This document shows positions 6,336 through 35,227 of a DNA stretch of 64,000 nucleotides, piece after piece. This stretch comes from Candidatus Thorarchaeota archaeon (lineage in GTDB: Archaea > Asgardarchaeota > Thorarchaeia > Thorarchaeales > Thorarchaeaceae): NCBI GenBank assembly GCA_048882325.1, contig JBHLRS010000001.1:64001-128000 (forward strand), in the 5' to 3' direction. Under the pieces are notes generated by a model that worked only from the letters and a program-made list of their open reading frames with translations, did not search any database and had not been told where the DNA came from. Each line of letters begins with the position of its first letter. Position 1 is the first letter of the stretch. The translations under genes were made by a program, and so were the position numbers.

Positions 6336-6439
6336 GTTTTCAACCTCGCTTGATAGATACTTCACATCGTGGTACCCATAAAAGTTCGACCATAGGGTTT
6401 AAGACTCGAACAGCTGAGGATGCTGAATAGTTGAGCACG

Positions 6440-7957: not shown

Positions 7958-8036
7958 TCGAGTTGTCATTTCTAAATCAAAGGACTTTTGTTGGCGACCT
8001 CCTAGTTTAGATATAGTCGGGTGGAGGAAGTCGACA

Positions 8037-8462
8037 CTGAACGATGATGAAAGACAATCTCGATGGGTTGTCAGGAATAAACAGCGCATTCAAGTTGGGG
8101 GATTCATCCTACTCATTGCAGCAATCATCTGGGAGATTCATGAGGGTGTGACAGGTATAGTAATGGTCATCTCAATGTTGCTTATCTTCTCAATTATTGG
8201 CCCGGTAAAGGGCGATCCCTATGATAAGACAAAGGATCTTGGATCATACATATCACTCACCGAGAGTATGCTCTACAGATCTGACACGCCAGTCGAGGAA
8301 TTTCAATATCTCATCTACCGATTCGTGACACTTGACAAACTCTCCCAAGGTCAGACTGATACTATCCTCAGGCACTTTGCAGGTCGAGCTGACAATGTTG
8401 GCGTTGAAGCAAGAAGACTGCTTAGAGATGAGGAGGAGGAGGAAATAGTTAGTGAGGATTGA
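8037..8462 (+). CDS. Hypothetical 2-TM membrane protein (probable CTG start)
   Basis: Two hydrophobic helices; GGAGGA SD 8 nt before in-frame CTG at 8037; the longer ORF call overlaps glyS. Confidence 0.55.
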   Translation: MNDDERQSRWVVRNKQRIQVGGFILLIAAIIWEIHEGVTGIVMVISMLLIFSIIGPVKGDPYDKTKDLGSYISLTESMLYRSDTPVEEFQYLIYRFVTLDKLSQGQTDTILRHFAGRADNVGVEARRLLRDEEEEEIVSED

Positions 8463-9096
8463 TCCACAAACACACTATAGAGATGAGATCTGTGAAGCTA
8501 TTGAGGCTACTCTACGTACTAGTTCTGAATTTGATGAGTGGACCGTACACCGGTTGAGGATTGATAGAAAATTGGCTAAACCCCATCCTGAACTTCATGA
8601 TCCCTTTGATGTTCGGAACCCTGAAGGGAAACATATGACTTGGTTATTTGAATATGAGCTGGAATTGCTTGACAGCCCTGAGTTACTCGTGGCATACATC
8701 AGGGGCAATTCGGAGAGAATTGAAATTGCTGGTAAGTTAGATCGGCAACTTGCCATTATTGTAATCGCTGTGATGTTAATCTCTCCAAGTATAATCTTCT
8801 TTCCTTGGAGACCTGATTCTCTGTTTCGTTTCACATGGGGCGTAGTGGAACTGGCACTTGCAATTTCACTTATGGCTTATCTTGTTCGTCGGAGGAACCA
8901 AGCATTAACTAGAATGGACGTTATCAATGCTAGAAACGATCCGTCTTTTCGTGAAGCACTCCGAATTCTATCCATACTTTCTGATCGTAGTGAACTGGGA
9001 GGTATGGAGGAATACTTCAAGAGGTATGAAAGAATGGACTTGCACTTAGTTATTGATTCCAATGCAAAAATAGAAAATCATGGGAAAGAGAGATAA
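8452..9096 (+). CDS. Hypothetical 2-TM membrane protein
   Basis: 214-aa ORF with GGAGG SD, overlaps the upstream stop, two TM helices. Confidence 0.6.
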   Translation: MRIDPQTHYRDEICEAIEATLRTSSEFDEWTVHRLRIDRKLAKPHPELHDPFDVRNPEGKHMTWLFEYELELLDSPELLVAYIRGNSERIEIAGKLDRQLAIIVIAVMLISPSIIFFPWRPDSLFRFTWGVVELALAISLMAYLVRRRNQALTRMDVINARNDPSFREALRILSILSDRSELGGMEEYFKRYERMDLHLVIDSNAKIENHGKER

Positions 9097-16985: not shown

Positions 16986-17022
16986 GGAGTGGCTAGACCA
17001 CTCCTACTTCTTTCCTTTTTTT
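16986..17022 (+). terminator. Hairpin plus T-tract
   Basis: GGAGTGG-CTAGA-CCACTCC then CTTCTTTCCTTTTTTT, just after the stop at 16977. Confidence 0.6.
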
Positions 17023-17205
17023 ACATTCAATCTGTTCAACGTAGGCTTATATTCTAAGTTTCGGACATAAGAGAAAAGCGCCGCTGCTAGGGATATGACC
17101 AATCAAGACTGTTGTCCGGAAACAGTTCTCTTTTGGAACAAGAATGCATCGCACGGTTCTATGCATTTTGAAAGCAGCTGCGGTCGCCAATCAAGTTAAC
17201 TTGAG

Positions 17206-20200
17206 GTGTACACGACGAAGCTATTCACCAAAGTATTCTCTCTCGCTGTACTGGCTCTATTCTCCTTATCACTTTTCATGACTCCTCCTATTGCAGACAT
17301 CTCAACTGAGGAGTCACTCACAGCTCCAATTTCTTATTCTAGGTATAATCCATACTCAATCGCTGATTACCCTGAGAATTATACCAGAGTCGATTGGGAT
17401 CTAGGGACAGTAAACGAAGAAAACACACACAATTGGAGTTCGAGTCATTATCGATTTGGACCAACAATTAATTGGCATACAAGAAATACAACTGATTCTA
17501 CATTGATTACCTGGAATGATGAAATCGCAATCAATGAGTATGTCGATTTCAGAATTGAGATACCATACAGCTCTCTTGGTGGACAGACCCCATTTGGAGT
17601 CTATCTCATGGGACAATACTTCAACATGTCTGCATTAGCAAACAGTGAAGGTCAGTTCTATATGAGCGGCAACTCACCCATAATGTTCATGGTCTGGTAT
17701 AACATATCGGGCGGCAACTGGCTCACTTTCAGTAGCACAAATACAACCTGGCCTGAAGCGCCACCTGCTGAGCTGCCACCTGGTTTTGCATTGAGTGACG
17801 TCTTTGGAACAGAAGTTTCCCCCTTCATGGAGATGAACATGGCGGCATCGGGATATGTCGCAGGAGCAGAGTCCTATTGGGCCAATGTTCGACTGAGATT
17901 CAATTCATCCACTATTGGAGGGTTCTACACAATCTCTTGCGGGGTGCAGGATACCCAACTGCAGACTATTGCTGAGAGCAGATTTGAGGAATTCAACAGT
18001 GGAAGAATCATCGGGACAACATTTGACTTCCTCGTGGATCAAGCTGTTGGTGGGTATTATGACTGGGAAAGAGTTTCTGATGATGGCTTTCCTCTATATT
18101 CCGCCACTCGTGGTGTAGACTTCAACATGACTGCTACTATTACCAATGGGACAAACCTGAGCACAGCTACAGTGCTCTTTGAAATTCCCAATCAGATCAG
18201 GACAAAGAACTGGGTCTATGGCCCATACACAGTGACCGAAGAAGTCACTGGAGTCTGGGAGTTTGATGATGTGAGTGAAACTTACTTCTGGAATGCAACA
18301 AAGACGGTCAACTGGACTTCTCAGAAGGAGGGTTTCCATTACGAGGATGGATACACTTGGTTAGATACTGGAAGGGAATACAACTTCAACGATTATGGCT
18401 TCATTCAGACGAGATGGACAAGTGGTCAGGCTGCAATAGTCTACAATTTCACAACTGGTACATTCACAACTGTTCTTGCTTATCACTACGATAACATGAC
18501 AGAGGTAACAGACCAGTATGGCACGCATTGGGAGAAAATCAACTGGTTCGAGTATGAACCGTGGCCTGTAGATGGCAGTATTCCTCTCCCTTACATCGTG
18601 AACCAGACCACAAGTGAGTCTTATTGGGCAAATGGAAAACTTGTGGTTACTTTCCGAGGTCATATCAGTGACAATATTCGTCCAACAACTCAAGACGATG
18701 GGAATTGGCCACTCAATGTTTGGGAAATTATCACAGATATCCATGGTCGCGGTCTTGCTCCTGCAGCTCGATTGCCATTGTCTTCACCAGAGGACGCAGC
18801 CCAGTATGACCTGCTGAACTCTCTGGCTGTCGAATCACCAGTTTCAATCGTGACTTTGACTCATGGTGGTGAACCATACGAGCCAGATTGGATGTTTTAT
18901 AGCGATATTGGTGTGCCCTTCACTGTAAAATCATGGCTGCAGGGTGGTGCTGATTACATCAATGAGATTGACGGCATAGGATTCTTTATGACCGCCTATG
19001 AGGACAATCGGGGCTTTGATGGCATGTTTGATTGGCACCAGTGGTCTGAAATTGAGATTCAGATTCGAATAGATCCTCATGGTGCAGTCGATGTAGCTGT
19101 CTATAACAGGACTGTTCGAAACCAGTGGATCAATGGTACTTACTGGGACTGGGTCATGGTTGAAGTCATGCCTGGTCGATGGGAGCCTCAATGGAAACTT
19201 ATCGACGACTGGCACTGGGAGGAGTTGACCTGGGACTTTGTTGCAGATGATTGGACTTCAGGATGGCTGTCGTTCGAATCACCAAATCTCAGAATGCCAG
19301 TTCACTGGCTTGATGTTGCTGGTCTCATGATAGATCCTTTAGGCAACGACCTCAGAATATCATTCGATATTATACCTACTCCTGAACTACCGCAGCTAGA
19401 ATGGAGATGGAAGTACTTCTATGGTGATCTTACCTGGGTTATTGACTACGAGTCTGGTTGGGGTGAACACACCGTACTCGGTTGGAACGAGAACACAGTA
19501 TACAGTTACATCAATGGCACATCCAAGCTATACATGGATGAACCAGTTAAGGCTGAAATCTTCAAGGACCAAATAACTCCTGATCTCTATCAGCGTGATA
19601 AGATTCCATATGTCGTGATAAATGGTCAAGAGATTAACCTTGACAAGTATTTGATGACAGATATGGAATACAATTGGGAAGAGACCGTCCGGTCCGAATA
19701 CAACTATTTGACTGGTGAAGAAGAATACTTCATCAAATTTGCAAATGGAACCGAGATACAGGTGTATTCAGGTAGTGCTGGGGTCATTTTCAATATCACA
19801 TTGCCAAATCTGGGAAATGCAAACTTTCTAGCTTGGGGCGATGGACCACAATATGCGGGTATTGATGACCTCTACTACATGCTTGCTGTAAATGGAACTA
19901 TGATTATTCAACCGTGGTTCATCTGGGATCTGTGGATAGCTCAATTCTATGAGGTGGTTGAGGTATCTCAGGTTGAGTATACCTATGTGACTTACCTCAA
20001 TGGTACAAAACCGTTCTATATGAGAGGTTGGCCCGAGTATTTAGGGTACGATCATTATGTGATGTATCGGAATGAAACATATGAACCAGTAGAGTTCTGG
20101 TATGATCCAACGTTTGGATATCACTACTGGAACATGACAGATGGGAAGTTGTACATGTTTGATTGGCCATGGGAGTTGATGACAGGAGTCTACAACTCAC

Positions 20201-23200
20201 AACCATTCTTCATACCACAGTTCATGACTCGCTCTCATGTATATACAGTTGTTTCAGGTAAGGAGTTCCAGCTTCCAGCACCCGGAATTCCCATGTGGAG
20301 TCCTTGGGAATTGAATGATCTTGAAAATATCATCAATCCTGCAACAGGCCGCTACTTTGCAAAGGAGTACGCTATCGTTGATGGTGTACCCTATGAGGCA
20401 ATTAAGTTGCCAATGCAGGAGTGGGAACCAATCTTTGGTTACTGGTATGATATCTATCAGATTGATACCGGAGTAATCCGCAATCTAACTGATTGGAGTA
20501 TGAATCCAGCAGGTAGGTTCAACTATGATGTTGGTGACTACATGAAGAACCTGCCATGGACCACAGTCGCAAACGGAACTATTTGGGTGCCCACTGTTGC
20601 TCAAGAGGACTGGACCGTTGCTGTCGGTCATCGCGACACGCAGACTTACGAGTTTGTTGCTGATGGCTGGCTAGACCTCCAAACTGGGTATTATGATGGA
20701 GATTATCAAACAAGCATGATCTCTGATTGGAACACGACTGGAGGATATGACTATGTCCTGACAATGAGTGGGGAGAAGTTCTTCTATAACGAAACTTGGA
20801 GAGCAACATTCCTCAACATCTCATTGTCTAATGGTACATTCTTCTATTCGCGAATGGACAATCCAGTCGCAGAGCCAATTGATATTACACAACCAGAGAT
20901 TGACCGCTATTTTATGATTGACATCTACGGCAACTATCAAGGATGGCGAGGATGGATGGACTTCACGGCACAGCTAGTGTTCGTGGAAGATGTCTTGGGA
21001 GACCCATTCCCTGGTAGTGGGTCATTCTTCTGGAATGGCACTTACCAACCCATCATCCAGTATCCTGTTGATTACTGGGAATGGGATGGATCCATGTGGT
21101 TCAACAGGACTTTCATTGAAGACAATATCGTGCCGCATTACTACAATTTCCTACAGTCTGCTCTGAATGGATCAATGTACGAAATCGTGTCATTGCAGCA
21201 AATCCCTGAGAGTTACAAATTTAACTTCCCCTCATGGGCGTTCAATGTGAGTGGAACCGAGTATCATGCTTTCGGAGCGAAGGAGCTGCTTTATCAAGCC
21301 TTTAAAACTCAGGGCTATAGCAGGAAGCTGGATTATGCGCCTCTTCCAATTTCGATTGTCCGTTCTCAGGAAGTTATCGTATATGGTGTTCCTGCTTATG
21401 GAATGTGGGATCACGAGGTCTGGACAATTGATCCTCTAACTGGAGCACTTGATCTAGATGGCGATCTTAGTACCACTGTAGATCAGTTTTATGTGAAGGA
21501 GATTCACTCCAGCACAGACTACTTCAACATAACTCAGCAGTATCTTGATGTTTCTATCCTCTGGGAACCTGATAATACCACCTATGCTGATGAGTTCTAC
21601 CTACACTCATACACAGGAATGGTCACATTCAACTGGACCTATGACTGGAGTGAGTTAAACATCTGGACTCATGCAGACACTGGAGCGACCTTGACTTCAG
21701 GTGAATACGCAACAATTTACAATGTGTTGTTCGATTCATATGGGAATCCACAACCAGGGTATTGGGGCATAGCATGGATGTTTGAGAATCGGACATATGC
21801 TGATGTGATCAATCAGGCTAAGGATGAAGGTTGGGACTGGGTAGAAGACAATTCTCAGGAATGGAGTTGGCTTTGGTGGGAGCTTGATGAGCAATACAGC
21901 ACTGTGGTGAGCAATGGTACTCATTCAGATCTAATGGATATCAATCTCGCATACCAGTATGCAGGTATGTTTGCGTGGAATGACACAAACAGTGACAACT
22001 TCATGGACATCTCTTCTGAAAGTTTGGGTGACGCAGAGCTAACCCACTATTGGATGCCTATAAATGTCGAATCTGTGAGTTTCACCACGCCCGGTGAAGC
22101 TTGGGGCAATCTCAACACAACAGATTCAGAGTATCGATCCGTTGATGAAACAATAGACTTTGGCGTCACATTCAACAACGTGACTGGAGAGGTCTATCCA
22201 TTCGGTGTACGATCATACTTTGATTGGTACGAAGATGCATACTATGGCTCTGACTTTGTTGACTTTGATGAACGACCCACCGAGTGTCTTACAGAAGAGT
22301 TCTCGATTGATGTACACTTTACAGGTGCAGTTAACCAGACCGATGACTCTGGTATCGCAGAGGTCAAGTTTGACATCACCGTAGGAGACTGGGAGATGTA
22401 CACACCTGGTGGAGATGATGCTCTAGATGGGCGAAGTCTCGCAGTTTCGTTTTATAGTGACATCACTATCCTCACGAGTGGTGGAATGACTGCTAATGCT
22501 ACCTACATTGATGACTTAGGTCAGACAGTAACCAATGACCAAGCTGCAGCATCTTACAACTTCACAATGGCTAGTGGCCTGAGTGATGTCGCTTTGATGA
22601 GCTTGGGTGGTTCACCCTACACCTGGACAAAGAACACGTCTATGCCAGTTACAGTTGACGCTCAGACAATTCCAGTCGATGCGTTCAGTGCAATCTATGT
22701 GTCTGGTGGAGGACATTCAGCTACGACATTCTCAGTAGCATCCACACAGTTCTACACCGTAATTGGTTTCCCACAATGGGATGGTTGGGCAGTAACAGTT
22801 GACCCAATCTTTGTTGGTTACATCTCACCAGGAACTCCAGATAGTGAGGCACCGAGTTTCGGTACTACAATACACTCAGCTGTTCAGATAACAGGTGTGG
22901 ATAATGTCCACATTGAAGCAAGCGTCACAGATGGTGGAGGTTCTGGTCTTGCGGGAGTCAAAGTTTGGGACATTGACAACAATATTAATCATACAATGAC
23001 CTACGATGAAGGCCGAAGTGTGTGGGAGGTTGACATTGCTCGAACGATTGATGGTCGTTACAACTTCAACTATAGAATTGTAGCTGAAGACAATGCTGGT
23101 AATGAAGCCACAACCACAATTCAGTCCTTCCTGTTCAGAGATAATCTTCCTCCAACGATAGACTCCCTGAACATTGTCAATGGAACTGATATCTACGGTG

Positions 23201-23931
23201 ACGAGATTGCTACAGTCACTGCAACTGCATCTGACACTGGTGGGTCAGGTATTGACTATGTTGTCTTATCTTACTGGAACACAACTGGAGTATACAACAT
23301 AACCATGGCATACTCCGCAGGTGAATACAGTGGTGAGATTCCAAACCATGCACCTGGAACCATTGTACAATATGGTATTACCGTGTACGACATTGATGGC
23401 AACCTCGACTGGAGTGGATGGGACACGTTCACCTTTGCAACTGGCGGAGCTCCTGATACAGTAAGTCCGTCGATTACGCTGGTGTTTCACGACCCAGCTA
23501 GTCCAGCATCAACTGATGCTGTTACTGTTTCAGCTGACATTCAGGATGTTTCTGGAGTTGCATCAGCTGTTCTACAGTACAAGGTTGATGGTGGAGCATG
23601 GAACAATGTGACAATGACTTCAGTAGGAACAACCTACAGTGCTACCATTCCTTCGCAGGCTGATGGCGTAACTGTCACATACCGAATTGTTGCATATGAT
23701 ACAGTCGGGAATGAGGCAGTTTCTGGTGAATTCTCCTACAATGTAGAGGATGTTGCCACAACAACTATACCAACTGGGCCAACAACCACCGAAACTCCAA
23801 CATCACCAACCGAACCAACAGGACCTCCTGGTCCCGGACCTGGTGATCAAGAAACCCTGCTCATGGTTTACGGAGCCTTTGGAGCACTTGTTGTGATTGT
23901 TCTGGCTCTAGCAGCTCGTAGACGTAAGTAG
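17206..23931 (+). CDS. Giant cell-surface glycoprotein (S-layer/adhesin-like), membrane anchored
   Basis: Signal peptide; Trp/Tyr/Asp-rich; many NxS/T sequons; DLDGD motif; three C-terminal Ig-like repeats, P/T linker, TM helix and RRRK tail; true start may be ACG at 17215. Confidence 0.8.
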   Translation: MYTTKLFTKVFSLAVLALFSLSLFMTPPIADISTEESLTAPISYSRYNPYSIADYPENYTRVDWDLGTVNEENTHNWSSSHYRFGPTINWHTRNTTDSTLITWNDEIAINEYVDFRIEIPYSSLGGQTPFGVYLMGQYFNMSALANSEGQFYMSGNSPIMFMVWYNISGGNWLTFSSTNTTWPEAPPAELPPGFALSDVFGTEVSPFMEMNMAASGYVAGAESYWANVRLRFNSSTIGGFYTISCGVQDTQLQTIAESRFEEFNSGRIIGTTFDFLVDQAVGGYYDWERVSDDGFPLYSATRGVDFNMTATITNGTNLSTATVLFEIPNQIRTKNWVYGPYTVTEEVTGVWEFDDVSETYFWNATKTVNWTSQKEGFHYEDGYTWLDTGREYNFNDYGFIQTRWTSGQAAIVYNFTTGTFTTVLAYHYDNMTEVTDQYGTHWEKINWFEYEPWPVDGSIPLPYIVNQTTSESYWANGKLVVTFRGHISDNIRPTTQDDGNWPLNVWEIITDIHGRGLAPAARLPLSSPEDAAQYDLLNSLAVESPVSIVTLTHGGEPYEPDWMFYSDIGVPFTVKSWLQGGADYINEIDGIGFFMTAYEDNRGFDGMFDWHQWSEIEIQIRIDPHGAVDVAVYNRTVRNQWINGTYWDWVMVEVMPGRWEPQWKLIDDWHWEELTWDFVADDWTSGWLSFESPNLRMPVHWLDVAGLMIDPLGNDLRISFDIIPTPELPQLEWRWKYFYGDLTWVIDYESGWGEHTVLGWNENTVYSYINGTSKLYMDEPVKAEIFKDQITPDLYQRDKIPYVVINGQEINLDKYLMTDMEYNWEETVRSEYNYLTGEEEYFIKFANGTEIQVYSGSAGVIFNITLPNLGNANFLAWGDGPQYAGIDDLYYMLAVNGTMIIQPWFIWDLWIAQFYEVVEVSQVEYTYVTYLNGTKPFYMRGWPEYLGYDHYVMYRNETYEPVEFWYDPTFGYHYWNMTDGKLYMFDWPWELMTGVYNSQPFFIPQFMTRSHVYTVVSGKEFQLPAPGIPMWSPWELNDLENIINPATGRYFAKEYAIVDGVPYEAIKLPMQEWEPIFGYWYDIYQIDTGVIRNLTDWSMNPAGRFNYDVGDYMKNLPWTTVANGTIWVPTVAQEDWTVAVGHRDTQTYEFVADGWLDLQTGYYDGDYQTSMISDWNTTGGYDYVLTMSGEKFFYNETWRATFLNISLSNGTFFYSRMDNPVAEPIDITQPEIDRYFMIDIYGNYQGWRGWMDFTAQLVFVEDVLGDPFPGSGSFFWNGTYQPIIQYPVDYWEWDGSMWFNRTFIEDNIVPHYYNFLQSALNGSMYEIVSLQQIPESYKFNFPSWAFNVSGTEYHAFGAKELLYQAFKTQGYSRKLDYAPLPISIVRSQEVIVYGVPAYGMWDHEVWTIDPLTGALDLDGDLSTTVDQFYVKEIHSSTDYFNITQQYLDVSILWEPDNTTYADEFYLHSYTGMVTFNWTYDWSELNIWTHADTGATLTSGEYATIYNVLFDSYGNPQPGYWGIAWMFENRTYADVINQAKDEGWDWVEDNSQEWSWLWWELDEQYSTVVSNGTHSDLMDINLAYQYAGMFAWNDTNSDNFMDISSESLGDAELTHYWMPINVESVSFTTPGEAWGNLNTTDSEYRSVDETIDFGVTFNNVTGEVYPFGVRSYFDWYEDAYYGSDFVDFDERPTECLTEEFSIDVHFTGAVNQTDDSGIAEVKFDITVGDWEMYTPGGDDALDGRSLAVSFYSDITILTSGGMTANATYIDDLGQTVTNDQAAASYNFTMASGLSDVALMSLGGSPYTWTKNTSMPVTVDAQTIPVDAFSAIYVSGGGHSATTFSVASTQFYTVIGFPQWDGWAVTVDPIFVGYISPGTPDSEAPSFGTTIHSAVQITGVDNVHIEASVTDGGGSGLAGVKVWDIDNNINHTMTYDEGRSVWEVDIARTIDGRYNFNYRIVAEDNAGNEATTTIQSFLFRDNLPPTIDSLNIVNGTDIYGDEIATVTATASDTGGSGIDYVVLSYWNTTGVYNITMAYSAGEYSGEIPNHAPGTIVQYGITVYDIDGNLDWSGWDTFTFATGGAPDTVSPSITLVFHDPASPASTDAVTVSADIQDVSGVASAVLQYKVDGGAWNNVTMTSVGTTYSATIPSQADGVTVTYRIVAYDTVGNEAVSGEFSYNVEDVATTTIPTGPTTTETPTSPTEPTGPPGPGPGDQETLLMVYGAFGALVVIVLALAARRRK

Positions 23932-23939
23932 AATATATG

Positions 23940-23970
23940 GCGGGCCTTGTGCCCGCTTTACTCTCTTTTT
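23940..23970 (+). terminator. Hairpin plus T-tract
   Basis: GCGGGC-CTTGT-GCCCGC then TTTACTCTCTTTTT. Confidence 0.6.
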
Positions 23971-23986
23971 CAAGCTCTGAGTCATG

Positions 23987-24385
23987 TCACTCGAGTTGAG
24001 ATTTTAACTTCTCATGGAAAAATCTTACACCTGCAAGGTGTGCTTCATAAGTGCAGTTGAAAAGGTCATAGGAGATACCAGTAACAGGTATGGCATTGCG
24101 AATCATCAGAAAGTCTCTCTTATCAATTCCAAAATTGACCTCAACAAGTGTCGCATTTGATTTCAATAATTTCTCATAGATCCCTTTCTTGCTCTTGGTA
24201 GGAACATTAGATAAGTCCATTAATCTAGTTGTGAGTGTGATCCAATTTTTTCCGGGAAAGACTTCAATAATCTTGGCTTCAATTGGTCCATATGGATACA
24301 GACTGAATGTCTTTCGACCATGCTCTTCAAAGTCAATCTCTAATCTTTTCAGATACTCTTTCGCAATGAACCATGTTGTGCTCAT
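23987..24385 (-). CDS. YbjN/CesT (T3SS-chaperone fold)-like protein
   Basis: 132 aa with IYEKLLKSN..LVEVNFGID pattern typical of YbjN-like proteins. Confidence 0.55.
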   Translation of the reverse strand: MSTTWFIAKEYLKRLEIDFEEHGRKTFSLYPYGPIEAKIIEVFPGKNWITLTTRLMDLSNVPTKSKKGIYEKLLKSNATLVEVNFGIDKRDFLMIRNAIPVTGISYDLFNCTYEAHLAGVRFFHEKLKSQLE

Positions 24386-24526
24386 CTATTCTCGTTCCTG
24401 CCTGAGGACTCTCCTCACTTCACCAATTGTTTCCGCAGTTTAGACTAGTGACCTATGGGCAAATACTAGTAAAAGTCTTCGCTTTTCCAGAAGGCTAGGT
24501 TTCTAAGGTATATTCTTTTTCGTTCT

Positions 24527-25762
24527 TTATGAGGTTGGCAGTCGGATGATGAATTTTGTACCACCTAGGTCTGGATCATCAACTAATTCAATGGAACCTT
24601 TGTGAGATTCTAGGACAAATTTAGAGAGATATAGTCCGACGCCCCCTTCCTCTGATTGAGATTTTGATCCCCGTCGAAAGAGAAATTCTCTCTTTTCAAT
24701 AGGAATGCCCGGCCCATCATCACTTATAGAGATTACAAAGTTATCTTCTTCAAGAGAAATATCAACAAAAACAGTTGGTGATTCTCCAGCATATTGCGCC
24801 GCATTTCTGAAGATATTTTGCCAAACCATTGGAAGAAGTCTGCTTGCAGTGAAAGCACACTTGCTAACTTCTTTTTCGCCAGTGACTTTTATTTTCAGAT
24901 GTCTATGTGTCTTTTGAGAATCGAGTGCAACTTCCTCTATATGTTTGACTAAATCCATTTCTGGTAGCTCAAGTGGCATAGAAAAGACATGAAGTAATTG
25001 CACCATTCTATTGCCAAGGTCAATTGATTGAGTGAGATTCTGATTGACTTTATTGATGTCGATATCAAGAAACAGCTGAGCCAGCTCAATTGAGCTTAGA
25101 ATGGCCTGCAAATCATTCCTTAGATCGTGTCGCAACAGCTGGGTATACACCTCAAGCTCCCACTGTTGTCTTGTCAAGTCACTATTGCTCTGCTCAACCT
25201 GCTCAATGTATTGCTCCAATGTATAGGATGCTACAAGAATGAAGAATGTAACAACGATAGCAGTACCAATGTGACTGTCAAATTCCGTAATTGGAATGCC
25301 AAATATGACATTCACAATGAAAACCATTGTTGAAATCATAACTACTCCTTGAGCAAAAACAACAGTAGTCCTTGTGAGTAATGCACCACCCACTAGTGCA
25401 ACCATAAACCAGACCATTAATCGAGGTAGATCATTTGGTTGCCAGCTAGTCCCAAATAGAAAGATGGTGACTGGTAATATTGTGATTGCAGCTACCGTAG
25501 TTGTCTGAACCACATCATAATACTTGGTTCTTGTTCCCAAATACATGAAGAACACTAGTAGAATCGCACTAAGATATGTGGGAGTGGAGAAGAAAACGAG
25601 TTCACTTGTGAATTGCGCGAAGGAGAATATTGGAATTGCGATGAGAAGAAATGACGAGAGGAGACGTGATTGCTGTCTTTTTCTCAAACCCTGTACGGAT
25701 GGATGTGGTTCGATAAGACTGGAAAGGAATTTACCCACATCACTGAGAAACCCCTCATTCAT
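24527..25762 (-). CDS. Membrane sensor histidine kinase
   Basis: About 6 TM helices; H-box LRHDLRNDL, N-box NIFRNA, G1 DDGPGIP, G2 GGVGL. Confidence 0.92.
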   Translation of the reverse strand: MNEGFLSDVGKFLSSLIEPHPSVQGLRKRQQSRLLSSFLLIAIPIFSFAQFTSELVFFSTPTYLSAILLVFFMYLGTRTKYYDVVQTTTVAAITILPVTIFLFGTSWQPNDLPRLMVWFMVALVGGALLTRTTVVFAQGVVMISTMVFIVNVIFGIPITEFDSHIGTAIVVTFFILVASYTLEQYIEQVEQSNSDLTRQQWELEVYTQLLRHDLRNDLQAILSSIELAQLFLDIDINKVNQNLTQSIDLGNRMVQLLHVFSMPLELPEMDLVKHIEEVALDSQKTHRHLKIKVTGEKEVSKCAFTASRLLPMVWQNIFRNAAQYAGESPTVFVDISLEEDNFVISISDDGPGIPIEKREFLFRRGSKSQSEEGGVGLYLSKFVLESHKGSIELVDDPDLGGTKFIIRLPTS

Positions 25763-29174: not shown

Positions 29175-29603
29175 CTATGAAACAAAGATTTTGTCAGCAA
29201 TGTGTCTGACTATGGCTCTAGTGATACCACTAACAAAACCCGTCGCAATTGTTTTGTCTAAGCATTCTATAAGTACGGGATTTTCCACCACCTTTCTGAC
29301 AAATTCATTCAGACTTTGAATAGCATGTGATGTCTGTCCCTTGAAGACATAACTAAACAAGAGTGAGGATTCATGTTTCATAATCATGGTATATTCACCA
29401 ATAGTGACACTATCAAGAGGTCTTGCGAATATCTTGTCAGTCAGAAAAACAAGGGCAGTCAAAAAACTAGAAACAAGATTTTCATTATCTTTCAGGTATG
29501 GGTGGAACTCTACAGACGCAAGATTAACACCTGTTTGGGCGGCTGAGAGAAACAGTTGAACTGGCTCTTCTTTCATGTTTTCCACGTCAGTAATTGCTAA
29601 CAT
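29175..29603 (-). CDS. Stand-alone longin-like domain protein (Asgard type)
   Basis: EEPV...LVSSFLTAL..LTDKIF..LD...GEYT...YVFKGQ pattern with beta-beta-alpha-beta-beta-beta-alpha-alpha layout. Confidence 0.55.
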   Translation of the reverse strand: MLAITDVENMKEEPVQLFLSAAQTGVNLASVEFHPYLKDNENLVSSFLTALVFLTDKIFARPLDSVTIGEYTMIMKHESSLLFSYVFKGQTSHAIQSLNEFVRKVVENPVLIECLDKTIATGFVSGITRAIVRHIADKIFVS

Positions 29604-29700
29604 TGTTCACACCTTGCCAAATGGGGTATGGGAGGAGAGAAGGAGTAGAGCCCTTCTCTGTTTGTATGAAGCTCAACTCACAACTCCTCCTAGATTTAGT

Positions 29701-31095
29701 TCACAGTCTGGTGGATGCTGTTGTTGTTATCCGATCCAACCTCCCAGTCAGTGCAGACCAGAACAATAGATAGCTTACCACAACCCAACCGTAGCCATAG
29801 TCAATTCCTGCAAGTCCAATCACAATTGGAGGCAATCTGATGACGAAGAAGAGGATTATTGCAATAGCTACTCCCAAGGGTTTTAGACTACCAGAAGCAC
29901 CACTTTTTCTCATACGCCTCCAAACTCCGAGGAATATCACGGAAGGCAACAACATAATCCCAATGGTCGGGAGAATGATGTATAGGAGATCCAGGAACGC
30001 TTGGCCAATACTTGTTGGATAAGCTTGACCGATAAGTAATGAGATCGGTGCATAGACAATCATAGGTCCTAATGCCGCACTCCTCCACCCAGCAGCATAA
30101 ATGGCTCCCACTGAGAGGAATGTCAATGCGTATCCAGTAAGGATGAATTCTATGTAAATCCCAAGTGGATCCGGAAACATCGAGAGGTTCTGAAGCATCC
30201 CCGTCATCTGTCCAATTCCTAACATAAAGAACGCAATCATGAACATGAGCGTAGGAATCTGCTTTGTTTCAGCCCACCTACCAAAGAGATATGATGCTGT
30301 TCCTATTGACAGGAGAATTGCTACTGCTCCCATCGATGTGATGCTCAAGAGGAAGAAGTCTGATGTGAACCCTGCTGATTGGATACTGACAAGAATAAGC
30401 ACTGGAAATGCAAAAGAGGCTCCATAACCAACCAGTTCAAAAGTGATTTTCTGGTCCGGTCGCAAGAATGTGAAGACAACCATTGCGGGACCCATTAGTG
30501 CTATGAATAAGGTTACTAATGACTCAGGTCCAATGAGCAAGTCGAAGTAAAGTACCGGAAGACCAGCTATTTGGGCAATGAGTGCAAAGGCGAGAGATGC
30601 ACTTGTTCCACGCTTGGTCTCTCGTGTTATGTAGACAAACAATCCTCCCACAACAATGAGAATTACTGATGGAAATAGAACTCCTATCAGTAGTAGGAAA
30701 TCCCCTGTCTGCGGATACATTTCTGCGAGTGCAAACAGCAAAACCGAAACAAGTCCAGTTGATGCTGGAATGGAATAGAATTGTCTTGCATTCAGAATCA
30801 TCGCTGCGGCTACACCTAACAAAACCACCTCTACAGCTGATGCAGCGTAAAAGGCATAATAGGTGTCAACCAAGATGGCTTGTCCAATTGTTTCTTCGAT
30901 GAATGTTGCCATTGCACCAAGGCTAAGGACAACAAAACCGACTGCGACAACGTATAGTGGTCGAAAAGCTTTTCGAGACTCTGAATCCATTCCAGCAGAT
31001 TTGGATCTGCTGTACATGATAATGGTCAGAGCAGCCACTAAAGTTGCCAATCCAAGATAGAGTTGAGTTGTTTCATATATTCCCATAGCTAACAC
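29701..31095 (-). CDS. ~15-TM membrane protein, apparently two tandem 7TM units
   Basis: 15 hydrophobic segments counted by eye; basic loops after TM1/TM5 and TM9/TM13; no soluble output domain. Confidence 0.65.
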   Translation of the reverse strand: MLAMGIYETTQLYLGLATLVAALTIIMYSRSKSAGMDSESRKAFRPLYVVAVGFVVLSLGAMATFIEETIGQAILVDTYYAFYAASAVEVVLLGVAAAMILNARQFYSIPASTGLVSVLLFALAEMYPQTGDFLLLIGVLFPSVILIVVGGLFVYITRETKRGTSASLAFALIAQIAGLPVLYFDLLIGPESLVTLFIALMGPAMVVFTFLRPDQKITFELVGYGASFAFPVLILVSIQSAGFTSDFFLLSITSMGAVAILLSIGTASYLFGRWAETKQIPTLMFMIAFFMLGIGQMTGMLQNLSMFPDPLGIYIEFILTGYALTFLSVGAIYAAGWRSAALGPMIVYAPISLLIGQAYPTSIGQAFLDLLYIILPTIGIMLLPSVIFLGVWRRMRKSGASGSLKPLGVAIAIILFFVIRLPPIVIGLAGIDYGYGWVVVSYLLFWSALTGRLDRITTTASTRL

Positions 31096-31098
31096 ATC

Positions 31099-31542
31099 CT
31101 AAAACACAGTTTTTCCCCAGTCGCTAGCGGATTTCTTAGCCTTTTCAACCTGCGACTCGGTCCATTCCTTCACACTCTCAGTTACCTCTGCAGAAGCTTC
31201 CTTATCATCCGAGAATAGCTCTCTCATCAAGGCGAGAGTACCATCATCGAACTGCCCACCATTCTCTTGAATCAGTTTGACTACTTCCTGGTTTGCAGCT
31301 AATGCGCTTGCCTCATTGGCTTCATGGAGTGTGACGATATGGTATTCATCGGAATTGCCAATCAGCAGTTTCATGTCTCCAAAGCGGAGTTCTTCCACTC
31401 TTGTGCCACCAGCGATCTTCTTGATGAACATCTGCACAGCTGACACAAAACCTCCAAACAGGGTGACGTCACCCTCTAGGTGTTCCCACCCAACCGATGC
31501 AACGGTTTCCCCTGCTTGGTTCACCAACATAATGCCGTACAT
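31099..31542 (-). CDS. Longin-like domain protein
   Basis: IMLVNQAG...D.TLFGGFVSAVQMF..KI.G...EELRFGDMKL pattern typical of Asgard longin-like domains. Confidence 0.65.
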   Translation of the reverse strand: MYGIMLVNQAGETVASVGWEHLEGDVTLFGGFVSAVQMFIKKIAGGTRVEELRFGDMKLLIGNSDEYHIVTLHEANEASALAANQEVVKLIQENGGQFDDGTLALMRELFSDDKEASAEVTESVKEWTESQVEKAKKSASDWGKTVF

Positions 31543-31590
31543 TTCGTTTTTCTCCGATTGATAGCTAACTGTGTTATCATGATCAAGTTG

Positions 31591-31860
31591 TTACAATGAA
31601 CTGAACCAGTCCTCCGTCTTCTCGATGGCATCCTTTTTGCCATCATCTTCCCCTGAAGTTCCCAAAGCAGCTTCAACGTCCCTGATTTTGAATTGACCAT
31701 CCACGAACAAGACAAGTGTATGATTTTTCGAGCAGCTCGTCGTGACCATTGCAGGCAAACGTTTAGCTTTCTTTATCGAATCTTCATCAACATCAACTTT
31801 TACTAGAGTTCCGTCTTTGCATTCTGGACATGTGAATGGACTCAATGACACTTTCGCCAT
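31591..31860 (-). CDS. Small Zn-ribbon protein (CxxC...CxxxH, VD.QF.IR)
   Basis: CPEC and CSKNH, LFVDGQFKIR; starts 3 nt after the GTPase stop. Confidence 0.65.
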   Translation of the reverse strand: MAKVSLSPFTCPECKDGTLVKVDVDEDSIKKAKRLPAMVTTSCSKNHTLVLFVDGQFKIRDVEAALGTSGEDDGKKDAIEKTEDWFSSL

Positions 31861-31863
31861 TTT

Positions 31864-32400
31864 TTACACCCCTTCTAGATGCTCTTTGATTAGTCCCTGA
31901 GCAATGAGATCAAACATATCTGAAATTCCCTCACCCGTTTTTGCTGAAACCTCTACACAATGAGCACCATAATTCTGTGCGAACACTACTCCGTCCTCGT
32001 ATGACACACCAGAACCATTCTCTCGTTCATCAGTTTTGTTTCCGACAAGGAGAATCTTGCTATCTGGGGCACTCTCTTTGAGCCGATCAATCCAATCTGT
32101 TAGTCGACCTAAGGAATATGACCGATTGACATCATAGACTGCAATGGCATACTTTGATCCCCTGAAATAATCTGACACGACATCACGAAACCGTGGCTGT
32201 CCTCCAAGATCCCAAATCATTAGGGTTAGAGTAGAGCCATTTGACTCGATTTTCTTTGATGCGAAATTTGCACCTATGGTGAGTCTCATGTTATCATCAA
32301 AACGGTCTTCCGTATATCGGAGGGTAATGCTGGTTTTACCAACGCCGCCCTCACCGATTATCACCGTTTTGAAGACTGGAGCTCTAGTTGTGTTAATCAT
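31864..32400 (-). CDS. Rab-like small GTPase
   Basis: G1 GEGGVGKT, G2 TIGANF, G3 WDLGGQ, G4 NKTD, G5 SAK; RabF-like RFRDV, YFRGS, VYDV; ATG overlaps the upstream stop (ATGATTAA). Confidence 0.93.
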   Translation of the reverse strand: MINTTRAPVFKTVIIGEGGVGKTSITLRYTEDRFDDNMRLTIGANFASKKIESNGSTLTLMIWDLGGQPRFRDVVSDYFRGSKYAIAVYDVNRSYSLGRLTDWIDRLKESAPDSKILLVGNKTDERENGSGVSYEDGVVFAQNYGAHCVEVSAKTGEGISDMFDLIAQGLIKEHLEGV

Positions 32401-33214
32401 TGGCTTTACCTCTGGTTTCTTTTCCTTCGACAGTGTTGACAGACCAAAGAATCTCCCCTCCAGAACGAAGTAGGATTCTTTTGGCATCTCTGTATCTTTC
32501 AATGAATTCATCATTGTCAGATAGCAAAACATGAGCAAGTCTCTCAAGCAATACTGAGAATGACACACTATCTATTGCTGATGCGTTCATTTGGTTCACG
32601 AGTTTTTCGAGGGCATTGAATAGTACCATGTCTTGTTCCAGAATCAGATTAGTCAGTTCTTTACAGTCCTCTTCCGAAGGCTCAATTCCCCAACCATTCT
32701 GTAAGAAATCAATACAGGGATATGGGCTATCAGTGGAGAATTTTGGTCGATGGTAGATGAAGAACCGAGCTACTGATCGAAACTGCAACCCTCTTGTCCT
32801 CTTCTTCCTGCCATCATCGTCAAACTCTGATGGGGGATCTTGTTCAACGAGATCCTGTTCTTCCAACTTCTGGAGATGATAATAACACTGATGACTAGTG
32901 ATTTTGAGCTCTGGGTACTTGTTTTCAAGTTCCTCAACAATTTCCGGGACTGTCAACCAATATCTTTGGATTGGTCTCCTCACCTCTACCGAATGAGTGA
33001 GTCCAGTACCATCGTCAAGTGTCTGTACCTCTGTTGTGACCTCAGTTTCAAAATCATTAATTCCGGCAGAGAGGACCCGAATGATGTGCTTACGAATTGG
33101 ATGGTGGAGTGATTCCTTCTGCTCATCATGTTCAATCAGAAGCAGCGTTCTTGGACTGCTTTCTGCTTGACTGATAAGAGTTGTTTCATCCACATTAATT
33201 CCCACGGTTATCAC
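32393..33214 (-). CDS. ArsR-like winged-helix protein with insertion
   Basis: HPIRKHIIRVL...LTVPEI...YYHLQKLEEQDLVE. Confidence 0.7.
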   Translation of the reverse strand: MITVGINVDETTLISQAESSPRTLLLIEHDEQKESLHHPIRKHIIRVLSAGINDFETEVTTEVQTLDDGTGLTHSVEVRRPIQRYWLTVPEIVEELENKYPELKITSHQCYYHLQKLEEQDLVEQDPPSEFDDDGRKKRTRGLQFRSVARFFIYHRPKFSTDSPYPCIDFLQNGWGIEPSEEDCKELTNLILEQDMVLFNALEKLVNQMNASAIDSVSFSVLLERLAHVLLSDNDEFIERYRDAKRILLRSGGEILWSVNTVEGKETRGKAND

Positions 33215-33225
33215 TTCATTCTGTC

Positions 33226-33265
33226 AACACTTGCTGTCAAGTGTTATTGTAACGAGTTGCAATAA
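33226..33265. promoter_or_regulatory. Two abutting inverted repeats in the divergent promoter region
   Basis: AACACTTG-CTGT-CAAGTGTT (33226-33245) and TTATTGTAAC-GA-GTTGCAATAA (33244-33265). Confidence 0.45.
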
Positions 33266-33382
33266 AAAAATAACAGTATTTAAATCTATTTCATTAGTAA
33301 GAATAATTAATATAGTAAATCACAATAACCAAATCTTTTAAGTTTGGACAAATACACGTTATAATCAGAGAGGAGAACTTCC

Positions 33383-35227
33383 TTGGATAGTAAACTTGCA
33401 GCGCTCCCAGAATTTCCTGACACACAAAGGAGGGACTTCATGGTTCTTGAAACTCCCGATCAAAAGGAGTCTCTCTACCACGCACTAAGACTCGAGATTC
33501 TCCGGGCACTGAGTACTGGTGTTGAGGATTTTGAAACAGAAGTGAGGAAGAATGAGAAAGAACTTGATGATGGGACTTTGATCTTGGAAGAGGTAACAAT
33601 TCGAAAGCCATCCCAAAGATATTGGATGAGTGTTCATGAGGTTCTTGAGGCTATCGCAAAAACCAAACCAGATCTCAAAATCTCTAACTACAACTGTTAC
33701 TATCATCTCAGGAAATTACGAAACCAGGGATTGGTTGAGCAGTATCCTCCTCCCAAACGAGGTAGAAAGGGAGATAGAAAAAGAGTCCGCGGGATGTTCT
33801 TTAGAACAACAGCGAGGTTCTTCGTACCAACCACCTTTGAGATATCTCCTGATTTAGCGGAGCAAGATGTCCTACCTCCTGAAGTGACGGAGAAAGCCGT
33901 TCAACTCGCACAAAAGGTCAAAGAAACCGGGAGGGCTGATGCCTACGAATATCAGATAAAGATTGGAAGGACTACGTATTGGTTTTCAGTCACAATGAGT
34001 CTTCATGATGATGGTGAAAGTATTGTTTCAGTAGTCCGAGACATAACGAAACAGAGGAATACCCAAGAGGCATTAAGACAAAGTCAGGAACGACTTGATC
34101 TTGCACTCAAGGGTGCTGATCTCGCGCCTTGGGACTGGTTGCATACAGCTAAACGAATGACGTTCAGTGATCGGTATGCTGAAATGTTGGGATTTAGTCT
34201 TAACGAATTGAAGGTGTATGCTGATAAGTGGGAGGAATTAATTCATCCTGATGATCTGGAAACAGTGCTACAGAAGTGGGATGATCATCTGGAGAGAAGA
34301 ACACCATCTTACTCCTCTGAACATCGAATGATGACTAAACACGGACATTACATCTGGGTTTTAGATAGAGGTAGAGTTGTCGAAAGAGATGAAGATGGCA
34401 ATCCTGTCAGGTCTGCTGGAACAATGCTTGATGTCACTCATGAGAAAGTTGTACTTCAAGCCCTGGATCAAAGCGAGGAACGATATCGAAGGCTTGTAAA
34501 TGATTCCAATCAAGGTATAGCCATATTCGTTGCAGGCAATCTTGTCTTTGCCAACACTGCATACACAGAAACAGTTGGTAGACCTCTGAGGGATTTACTT
34601 GAGATGACTCCTGAGAGTATTTGGAATATTGTACATCCAGATGATAGACCAGAGTTGGAACGAAGGAATGAAGAGATCGTTTCTGGAGCAAAATCGCTTC
34701 CACATTACAGATTCAGATACATACGCCCTAATGGCGAGGAGCGATGGGTAGACTCCTATGCCAAAGTCGTTGATCATGATGGCCGAAGAGCCTTACAGGT
34801 TCTTGAGGTTGATGTCACTGAGCAATACAAGGCAGAGAATGAATTGCGAGAGAGTGAGCGACGTTTCAAAAGCGTCTTCGAGCTGTCACCTATCGGTATC
34901 ATTCTATTAGATCAACAAGGAAAAATCATTCAGCTCAACCAGGCGGCTAAGGATATCTTGGGCGTGTCTGATCCTAAGGATTATGAGAATTATAGCTTGG
35001 AGGCAGACCAGAATATTCCTCCAACAGTTTTGATCGATATACGAGAGGGCGATGTAAACAGGTTTGAAGTCGATTATGATCTACAAAAAGCAGGTCTCAA
35101 GTCAAAGAGGAGAGAACCAATTAGATTACAAGTTATCGGGATTGCATTGAATGTATCAGATGATGGGACTGTCAATACATATCTCGCGCAGATTTTGGAT
35201 GTTGGCAAAACCGAGAATCAGAGTTAG
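33383..35227 (+). CDS. One-component regulator: wHTH plus multiple PAS/PAC domains
   Basis: N-terminus paralogous to 32393..33214; PAS motifs IHPDD, VHPDDR, RDIT/LDVT/VDVT; no kinase or other catalytic domain. Confidence 0.85.
   Translation: MDSKLAALPEFPDTQRRDFMVLETPDQKESLYHALRLEILRALSTGVEDFETEVRKNEKELDDGTLILEEVTIRKPSQRYWMSVHEVLEAIAKTKPDLKISNYNCYYHLRKLRNQGLVEQYPPPKRGRKGDRKRVRGMFFRTTARFFVPTTFEISPDLAEQDVLPPEVTEKAVQLAQKVKETGRADAYEYQIKIGRTTYWFSVTMSLHDDGESIVSVVRDITKQRNTQEALRQSQERLDLALKGADLAPWDWLHTAKRMTFSDRYAEMLGFSLNELKVYADKWEELIHPDDLETVLQKWDDHLERRTPSYSSEHRMMTKHGHYIWVLDRGRVVERDEDGNPVRSAGTMLDVTHEKVVLQALDQSEERYRRLVNDSNQGIAIFVAGNLVFANTAYTETVGRPLRDLLEMTPESIWNIVHPDDRPELERRNEEIVSGAKSLPHYRFRYIRPNGEERWVDSYAKVVDHDGRRALQVLEVDVTEQYKAENELRESERRFKSVFELSPIGIILLDQQGKIIQLNQAAKDILGVSDPKDYENYSLEADQNIPPTVLIDIREGDVNRFEVDYDLQKAGLKSKRREPIRLQVIGIALNVSDDGTVNTYLAQILDVGKTENQS

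Follow-up and report, generated by a model that had tools for sequence, protein, structure and literature searches.

At positions 29175–35227 of the DNA analysed here, a stretch of 64,000 nucleotides (nt) from a Candidatus Thorarchaeota archaeon (GenBank assembly GCA_048882325.1, contig JBHLRS010000001.1, positions 64,001 to 128,000; hereafter the window), lies a locus whose core is four genes. These encode a small zinc (Zn)-ribbon-type protein, a protein with a predicted longin fold, a membrane protein with 15 predicted transmembrane (TM) helices and a Rab-like small GTPase. On balance, we read the locus as encoding a membrane-associated small-GTPase switch complex made up of these four co-inherited proteins. 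The identities of the components and their strict co-occurrence are the established part of this reading.

The four core genes stay together across Asgard genomes

Relatives of the membrane protein were sought with a TM-protein profile in 151 Asgard genomes belonging to 27 families. The TM-protein family was present in 18 of the 151: 13 of the 26 genomes in the window's own family, all three of a second family and one of the 19 in a third. The second family is Atabeyarchaeia; one locus has as its GTPase the protein annotated in Ca. Atabeyarchaeum deiterrae as a Rab family GTPase. The range among the sampled genomes covers Thorarchaeota, Atabeyarchaeia and one other Asgard family. Wherever a locus had enough flanking sequence to be informative, the Zn-ribbon, longin, TM and GTPase genes were found together within about 3.5 kb. 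This was the case at 20 of 20 informative loci, from 17 other genomes, and at two more loci in this genome. An earlier reading of the sequence alone (the sequence-only reading) had staked its proposal on synteny among Asgard relatives, and synteny is indeed strongly conserved.

The core genes occur in two orders, GTPase-Zn-longin-TM, as in the window, and Zn-longin-TM-GTPase, and this genome has one of each. Best-hit typing of the TM, longin and Zn-ribbon proteins was concordant in all loci but one. The second copy in this genome (L009:6049–8650, contig 12 of G000) has spacers of 11–14 nt and is laid out as follows:

8396–8650, minus strand, Zn-ribbon protein
7992–8381, minus strand, longin
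6598–7980, minus strand, TM protein, 460 amino acids (aa)
6049–6585, minus strand, GTPase

Each of its four proteins is a paralog of the corresponding one in the window. Identity between the two copies is 26% for the TM protein (E 3e-23), 61% for the GTPase and 42% for the Zn-ribbon protein; the longin of the second copy matches the longin profile at 1.6e-26. The clustering of the four genes is far beyond chance. That the set has not come apart despite a change of order, a duplication and divergence down to 26% identity is strong evidence for a shared function.

The sequence-only reading had set out a layout of seven genes. That layout is real, and the whole of it recurs in independent metagenomic contigs within a Thorarchaeota subclade; the core, however, is only the four genes named above. 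The second longin and the regulators are accessory, since most loci have one longin and neither a winged helix-turn-helix (wHTH) nor a PAS gene.

One further arrangement was seen in genome G069, where two modules stand back to back on opposite strands (contig 119, about 17000–25500; L019 and L033). A further Rab-like GTPase gene there is convergent on one of the TM genes, giving three module GTPases locally.

Organisation of the locus

The seven genes comprise six co-oriented open reading frames (ORFs) on the minus strand and one divergent gene on the plus strand. The gene map, strands and gaps given by the sequence-only reading were reproduced exactly by the ORF listing:

33383–35227, plus strand, wHTH-PAS regulator, 614 aa, the divergent gene
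33215–33382, no strand, AT-rich intergenic region, the divergent promoter region, read directly from the sequence
32393–33214, minus strand, wHTH protein, 273 aa, first gene of the operon, overlapping the GTPase start by 8 nt
31864–32400, minus strand, Rab-like small GTPase, 178 aa, starting at an internal ATG at 32400
31591–31860, minus strand, small Zn-ribbon-type protein, 89 aa
31099–31542, minus strand, longin-fold protein, 147 aa
29701–31095, minus strand, 15-TM protein, 461–464 aa (the database gene call starts at 31086)
29175–29603, minus strand, second longin-like protein, 142 aa

Along the minus-strand operon, from the wHTH gene on, the spacing is an 8-nt overlap followed by gaps of 3, 48, 3 and 97 nt. 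The identities proposed for the components (wHTH, PAS sensor, Rab-like GTPase, Zn-ribbon and longins) all held when followed up by Pfam, PDB sequence search, AlphaFold2 (AF2) modelling with VIA-align, and hhalign, the wHTH match lying slightly under the Pfam cutoff.

The GTPase is Rab-like and lacks a lipid anchor

The GTPase matches the Pfam family Ras at 5.2e-41, with Arf (8.6e-13) and Gtr1_RagA (4.8e-7) much weaker. In a PDB sequence search its best solved relatives were Rab18, Rab14, Rab35 and Rab2A, all with E of about 3e-32. The top 46 matches, with E from 3e-32 to 1e-28, are without exception eukaryotic Rab, Ypt or Sec4 proteins; the published Thorarchaeota Rab, Thor-Rab (7ezb), comes after these 46, at 1.3e-28. 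Motifs G1–G5 are complete, and GEGGVGKTS, T41, WDLGGQ, NKxD and SAK are invariant in 18 module GTPases, the switch-II Gln being kept. In the alignment of these 18, no C-terminal tail contains a Cys. To judge from its sequence, the protein is an intact Rab-like switch without a lipid anchor. It is Rab-like rather than a canonical Rab because the C-terminal Cys motif for geranylgeranylation is missing, and since there is no lipid-anchor cysteine it probably reaches the membrane only through a complex.

The 147-aa protein folds as a longin

An AF2 model of the 147-aa protein, built on 41 homologs, reached a pLDDT of 72 and a pTM of 0.71. Its topology is ββαβββαα, the longin order, followed by a long C-terminal helix, and there is no N-terminal helix; DSSP places strands at residues 3–8, 13–17, 51–54, 57–63 and 67–74 and helices at 26–44, 80–93 and 100–110. 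In an all-against-representatives search with VIA-align the top match was the longin domain of VAMP7 (Z 11.2, 103 aligned residues, root-mean-square deviation (rmsd) 2.5). Sec22 followed at Z 10.5, then CPLANE, COPI, sigma-adaptin and TRAPP at Z 9.6–10.4; taken together, BLOC-3, Mon1-Ccz1, TRAPP, sigma-adaptins, CPLANE and COPI all fall within Z 9–10.4. Roadblock proteins come below the longins, at Z 8–9 (best 8.8, MglB 8.3–8.4), and profilin lower still at Z 7.9. A Foldseek search of the model against the PDB returned only longin or Roadblock rows, with weak E values of about 1e-3 and none at 0.001 or below, and for this reason the assignment rests on VIA-align and topology.

Curated sequence models do not recognise the family. 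No Pfam or NCBIfam model is matched by the 147-aa protein or by any of its 41 family members; Longin, Sybindin, Sedlin_N, Clat_adaptor_s, Fuz_longin_1 and Mon1 in particular give nothing at E up to 1, and Robl_LC7 is likewise unmatched. A Roadblock/LC7 identity, which would call for an αββαβββ topology with an N-terminal helix, is not supported, the model starting with a strand at residue 3 and Robl_LC7 giving no match; by comparison, a true Roadblock elsewhere in the genome scores 2.7e-10 against Robl_LC7. By predicted fold and topology, then, the 147-aa protein is a longin, and this, with the profile match of the 142-aa protein described below, bears out the proposal that both small proteins of the locus are longin-like.

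Two features of the wider family may be recorded here. Longins of the window type carry an insertion of ∼21 residues (within residues 118–147) with a second conserved Trp (W127-T128, in at least 90%) upstream of W142-G143, an insertion that is lacking in longins of the Zn-longin-TM-GTPase order. A third module-longin paralog of this genome, of 136 aa, lies outside the window in a different context (L010:1751–2161, contig 1 of G000). Its neighbours (L010:15–3563) are a Roadblock/LC7 protein at 2215–2604 (Pfam 2.7e-10), a 309-aa Pro-rich protein without a Pfam match and a 555-aa coiled-coil protein ending in CxxC...CxxC.

The Zn-ribbon protein shares a C-terminal helix with the longin

The 89-aa protein belongs to an Asgard-only family with a CPxC...C-x3-H site, made up of two ligand pairs, C11-P-x-C14 and C43-x3-H47. 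Across 20 sequences C11, P12, C14, C43 and W85 are invariant and H47 is present in at least 90%, the His being missing in one member. No curated Zn-ribbon model was matched, the best being Zn_ribbon_16 (E 0.096, 13 bits against a cutoff of 27); the ESM Atlas gives Zn_ribbon_21 as a structural lead (TM-scores 0.51/0.66).

The protein ends in a conserved DKAxxW-x4-COOH helix, and the longin ends in a KAxxDWGKTVF helix. From the alignments, the consensus shared by the two tails is [D/K]-K-A-x-x-W followed by four or five residues, and neither the longin nor the Zn-ribbon family shows any change of the tail Trp, whichever gene order or Asgard class a sequence comes from. The occurrence of one terminal motif on two unrelated folds suggests a common docking site. 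Such a site could lie on the TM protein's conserved cytoplasmic face, perhaps once per bundle, on the GTPase or on the surface of the membrane.

The membrane protein is built as two seven-helix bundles

The AF2 model of the 15-TM protein (pLDDT 89.7, pTM 0.86) has 15 TM helices. Seven helices are followed by a linker helix, a further seven helices and a short C-terminal helix, so that the bundles are formed by helices 1–7 and 9–15. All loops are short and there is no soluble domain. Because all nine loop Lys/Arg residues lie on one side of the model (nine inside, none outside), both bundles are assigned an orientation with the N-terminus out and the C-terminus in. The cytoplasmic side is the more conserved (0.68 versus 0.52, p 2e-9), and polar residues within helices 3, 6, 10 and 14 (E86, Q172, Q293 and R417) are nearly invariant.

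No Pfam family covers the protein. VIA-align matched residues 240–453 to seven-transmembrane (7TM) receptors; ADGRL3 gave Z 14.7 over 206 aligned residues with an rmsd of 4.0, a value near the level that arrangement alone yields for helical bundles; further rows were a designed fold resembling G-protein-coupled receptors (GPCRs) at 13.9 and CD97 at 13.8. The 50 top rows for the C-terminal half held nothing but 7TM receptors and designed 7TM folds. Among ESM Atlas models, each half matches the N-terminal 7TM modules found in HisKA and GGDEF sensors, as well as V1R and DUF6962; the N-terminal 7TM half was compared with Atlas models only. Aligned with each other by hhalign, the N-terminal and C-terminal halves match in register and weakly (E 0.0066), which is suggestive of an internal duplication. 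The model thus supports the 7+1+7 reading, first proposed from the sequence as a tandem-7TM architecture, at the level of architecture; the GPCR resemblance is one of fold only.

A second, accessory longin-like protein

The family of the 142-aa protein aligned with the module longin family at 96.8% (hhalign, profile against profile; E 2.1e-10, 87 columns, from β2 to α2). Against the type-A longin alignment alone the probability was 3%, and the relationship is visible only with family profiles on both sides. On this profile evidence we regard the 142-aa protein as a distant paralog of the module longin and an accessory member of the module. It is without the C-terminal W motif. Two leads, and leads only, come from the ESM Atlas, whose own model of the protein (pTM 0.76) resembles a Fuz_longin_1 cluster (TM-scores 0.73/0.75) and whose feature search gave a Roadblock/LAMTOR2 cluster at 0.93.

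A word-based homolog search had come back empty, suggesting that the gene was an orphan; exhaustive, genome and contig searches overturned this. At E up to 1e-3 the exhaustive search yielded 404 relatives, in most of which the domain forms the C-terminal part of a TPR protein of 600–750 aa. Stand-alone homologs with 40–45% identity lie directly after the TM gene in L043, L052–L055 and L057, and the idea that the sixth gene is non-syntenic was rejected for this subclade. Such a homolog is absent after the TM gene in L001, L003, L017, G128 and the clade with a TM protein of ∼487 aa. An extra copy of the module longin itself follows the GTPase in two loci of the Zn-longin-TM-GTPase order (L022:576–977 and L024:3759–4232). 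Since a second longin is found in both module types, as these copies in one and the 142-aa homologs in the other, the two-longin state arose more than once.

The TPR proteins form a large Asgard family in their own right, with N-terminal TPR repeats (TPR_12 1e-27) and a C-terminal longin-like domain homologous to the 142-aa protein; its members here are L041, L042, L044–L047, L050, L051 and proteins P0150–P0296. In L052–L054 a co-oriented 518-aa gene, with no Pfam match on record, starts 5 nt after the second longin (L052:6492–8048, L053:5314–6870, L054:3500–5056), and may be an eighth member in that lineage.

Regulators and the divergent promoter region

The divergent wHTH-PAS protein has three or four PAS domains C-terminal to an ArsR-like wHTH, without a catalytic output domain. 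Above the gathering score, the product of 33383–35227 matches PAS_3 (6.4e-40, 135.8 bits), PAS_8 (66.4 bits) and PAS_9 (61.2 bits), and TIGR00229 matches it over four stretches (2.3e-41). The Pfam model HTH_20 scores 2.9e-5 (24.4 bits, against a cutoff of 27) on this protein and 8e-6 (26.2 bits, just under the same cutoff) on the 273-aa wHTH protein. The latter is paralogous to the N-terminus of the wHTH-PAS protein, with residues 17–148 being 48% identical (E 3e-42).

The wHTH gene is kept upstream of the GTPase in L003, L032/L039, L038, L052, L053 and L055, and a divergent wHTH-PAS homolog is present in L003, L038, L039, L052 and L055. As a pair, the two accompany the window-type module in L003, G128, G143, L052, L053 and L055; both genes are absent from the ∼487-aa-TM clade and from the Zn-longin-TM-GTPase gene order.

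Upstream of the wHTH gene there is a TATA-like TTTAAATA box at about 33278–33287. Between it and the wHTH start lie two inverted repeats, CACTTG-N4-CAAGTG (33228–33243) and TTGTAAC-N2-GTTGCAA (33247–33262). In L052 and L053 the TATA box and repeat block recur almost unchanged; in L003 and L039 the same TATA box is followed, at the same position, by another inverted repeat, AAGCAC-N8-GTGCTT. The two inverted repeats are candidate operators, and their placement would suit wHTH proteins. The arrangement in the window's subclade, in which the operon has a wHTH gene in front of it, a paralogous wHTH-PAS gene facing it and conserved repeats just downstream of the TATA box, suggests that a PAS-sensed signal controls transcription. 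The sequence-only reading had put the whole operon under wHTH/PAS control; the linkage does recur in the subclade, but most loci have no wHTH or PAS gene.

A scan for sigma-70 promoters and intrinsic terminators, which is ill-suited to archaea, gave counts at the level of shuffled sequence. In the 97-nt gap at 29604–29700 the coding strand holds an 8-bp stem with an 8-nt loop (AGAGAAGG...CCTTCTCT), not followed by a T-run; it may be a processing site or an attenuator, or have no role.

A membrane-associated GTPase switch and its alternatives

In the switch complex that we favour, the unprenylated GTPase would act at the membrane, which it would probably reach only through a complex with the 15-TM protein. 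The longin and Zn-ribbon proteins would be kept at the membrane by the 15-TM protein, whose two 7TM bundles would serve as an anchor and possibly as a sensor. The longin, whether alone, with the Zn-ribbon protein or with the second longin, would be the platform on which the GTPase is bound and its nucleotide state controlled, a role modelled by analogy on the longin/Roadblock platforms of eukaryotes and Myxococcus. The C-terminal KAxxW helices of the longin and Zn-ribbon proteins may dock onto the cytoplasmic face of the TM protein or onto the GTPase. A complex prediction with the four core proteins, in which the TM protein was the scored partner, gave 0.35 against 0.00, 0.00 and 0.27 for controls with a swapped GTPase, a result that speaks neither for nor against binding.

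Several observations weigh against this picture. The extracellular loops of the 15-TM protein are 4–9 residues long, which leaves no ligand-binding ectodomain. A Foldseek search of the PDB with the whole protein gave no significant match (E 0.08 or more), and the 7TM similarity is fold-level only, the Z of 14.7 being barely above that expected from helical-bundle arrangement alone. The DRY, CWxP and NPxxY motifs are absent from the protein, and neither helix 7 nor helix 15 contains a Lys, so that there is no retinal Lys. Guanine nucleotide exchange factor (GEF) or GTPase-activating protein (GAP) activity cannot be read from a longin fold, longins also being SNARE regulators, coat subunits and effectors. 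Lastly, the module is not a core Asgard system, since the search for the TM family came back empty in 24 of the 27 families sampled and in half of the genomes from the window's own family.

Signalling might instead run from the cytosol to the membrane, with the 15-TM protein as a regulated target (a transporter, a channel, or a lipid-handling or other membrane enzyme) and not a receptor. The GTPase would then control its activity, assembly or position, and the longin and Zn-ribbon proteins would be adaptors. We regard this as possible if somewhat unlikely. The synteny evidence is equal for it and gives no direction, and the nearly invariant polar residues within the helices are as in transporters; the 15-TM protein is also without an ectodomain, and the PAS regulator is cytoplasmic, so that sensing may happen there. 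Against this, there was no significant Foldseek match to solved transporter folds, with TM-scores for MATE, MFS and MurJ of 0.2 or less, whereas every one of the 50 top VIA-align rows for the C-terminal half is a 7TM receptor or a designed 7TM fold. Input domains of sensor kinases and of GGDEF proteins are among the Atlas neighbours of each half, and conservation peaks at the cytoplasmic face, not in mid-membrane.

The switch complex could also be given a more specific form, in which the tandem-7TM protein is a receptor read by a longin-type exchange factor that loads the Rab-like GTPase, making an archaeal pathway from a 7TM protein to a small G protein. This is tentative, and we think it rather unlikely. 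If it were true, such a 7TM–longin–GTPase pathway would either have been invented independently or be left over from machinery that gave rise to eukaryotic membrane-coupled GTPase signalling (transceptor–Ragulator–Rag or receptor–GEF–Rab).

We consider it improbable that the locus is a polarity or cytoskeleton-positioning module of the MglA/MglB type, in which the longin, as GAP or GEF, would set the distribution of the GTPase and the membrane protein would be a static landmark without sensing. Roadblocks, MglB among them, are structural neighbours of the longin (Z 8.3–8.8), and the third longin paralog of this genome adjoins a Roadblock/LC7 protein (Pfam 2.7e-10). MglB regulates MglA through a C-terminal helix, which also counts in favour. 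The topology, however, is that of a longin and not a Roadblock, starting with a strand and lacking an N-terminal helix, and longins outscore Roadblocks; the GTPase is closest to eukaryotic Rabs by sequence and keeps its switch-II Gln. Furthermore, we know of no MglA/MglB pair that needs a dedicated polytopic membrane protein or a Zn-ribbon protein.

Finally, that the genes are neighbours without a shared function, their longin-like and 7TM resemblances being incidental, is very unlikely: Pfam has a model for only one of the four core families, as this would allow, but the four genes remain together at all 20 informative loci across a change of order, whole-module duplication and two Asgard classes, and their overlaps and gaps of 3–14 nt are typical of co-translated operon genes.

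Relation to known systems

Asgard genomes contain dozens of small GTPases and many Roadblock and longin proteins. The module would represent a specific GTPase–regulator pairing among them, conserved and duplicated as a unit and including a longin invisible to curated sequence models, and, in the archaea most closely related to eukaryotes, it is a concrete candidate for small-GTPase signalling coupled to the membrane. It opens the questions of how an unprenylated archaeal Rab-like GTPase meets the membrane and of what role longins had before eukaryotes. All four proteins are small enough for expression and reconstitution, and both questions are therefore directly testable. Should the 7TM protein turn out to have a sensing role, prokaryotes would have their first example of such a protein connected to a small GTPase.

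We found no description of a Zn-ribbon/longin/15-TM/GTPase module in the published literature, in agreement with the sequence-only reading, which knew of none for this combination. In the Lokiarchaeon MK-D1, GTPase genes are generally not in operons with Roadblock or longin genes, and their partners are hard to match from genome layout (Tran et al. 2024, PMC10933270); the same authors list longins for Loki and Odin, not for Thorarchaeota. A 2026 preprint reports 7TM and GPCR-like structural clusters in Asgard archaea, without a link to GTPases.

Each half of the 15-TM protein, like GPCRs and prokaryotic 7TM sensor inputs, is predicted to be a seven-helix bundle with the N-terminus out and the C-terminus in, and adhesion, class C and class A GPCRs can be aligned with ∼200 residues of the C-terminal half (Z 10–14.7). 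Unlike 7TM receptors, the protein has two bundles fused via a linker helix, and it has no DRY, NPxxY or CWxP motif, retinal Lys, ectodomain or fused output domain. The G protein associated with it is monomeric and Rab-like, not heterotrimeric as for GPCRs, and the resemblance is again that of fold only.

The MglA/MglB systems of Myxococcus and Thermus likewise place the gene for a prokaryotic small Ras-like GTPase beside that for a small protein of the Roadblock/longin superfamily, and MglB regulates MglA. The module differs in the predicted longin topology of that protein, in its Rab-like GTPase with a switch-II Gln, and in its obligate membrane and Zn-ribbon partners.

By analogy, the module may share its logic with the lysosomal assemblies of SLC38A9 or LYCHOS/GPR155 with Ragulator, GATOR1 or FLCN and Rag, in which a polytopic membrane protein and Roadblock/longin platforms control a small GTPase without a lipid anchor of its own. 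In contrast to those assemblies, the module GTPase is Rab-like, not Rag-like, and is without a C-terminal Roadblock domain; the membrane proteins show no relationship at the sequence level (Foldseek gives LYCHOS a weak row, with E 0.13 and TM 0.27) and there is no mTOR-like output. This comparison rests partly on Liu et al. (bioRxiv 10.1101/2020.10.19.343400). The same work (Liu et al. 2021) describes a different Asgard operon, which puts a Rab-like GTPase together with a LAMTOR1-like Roadblock protein and a DENN-domain protein and is interpreted there as a possible GEF module. That operon and the module both show a conserved Asgard pairing of a Rab-like GTPase with a Roadblock/longin superfamily protein; the module, however, has no DENN or LAMTOR1-like protein, has the Zn-ribbon and tandem-7TM proteins instead, and is narrower in range.

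With the eukaryotic Mon1-Ccz1, the TRAPP core and CPLANE/BLOC-3, the module has in common a longin fold (its longin aligning at Z 9–10.4) and a Rab-like GTPase, and the second longin in some loci echoes the heterodimer theme of the eukaryotic longin Rab GEFs. It departs from them in that its longin is a single domain of about 130–150 aa without detectable sequence similarity to theirs, most loci have one longin, the place of large multi-domain subunits is taken by a Zn-ribbon protein and a polytopic membrane protein, the GTPase is not prenylated, and a GEF role is putative here. The kind of system, a small GTPase with a Roadblock/longin regulator, is thus a known one, with MglA/MglB, Mon1-Ccz1, TRAPP and Ragulator–Rag as examples, whilst the set of partners differs here.

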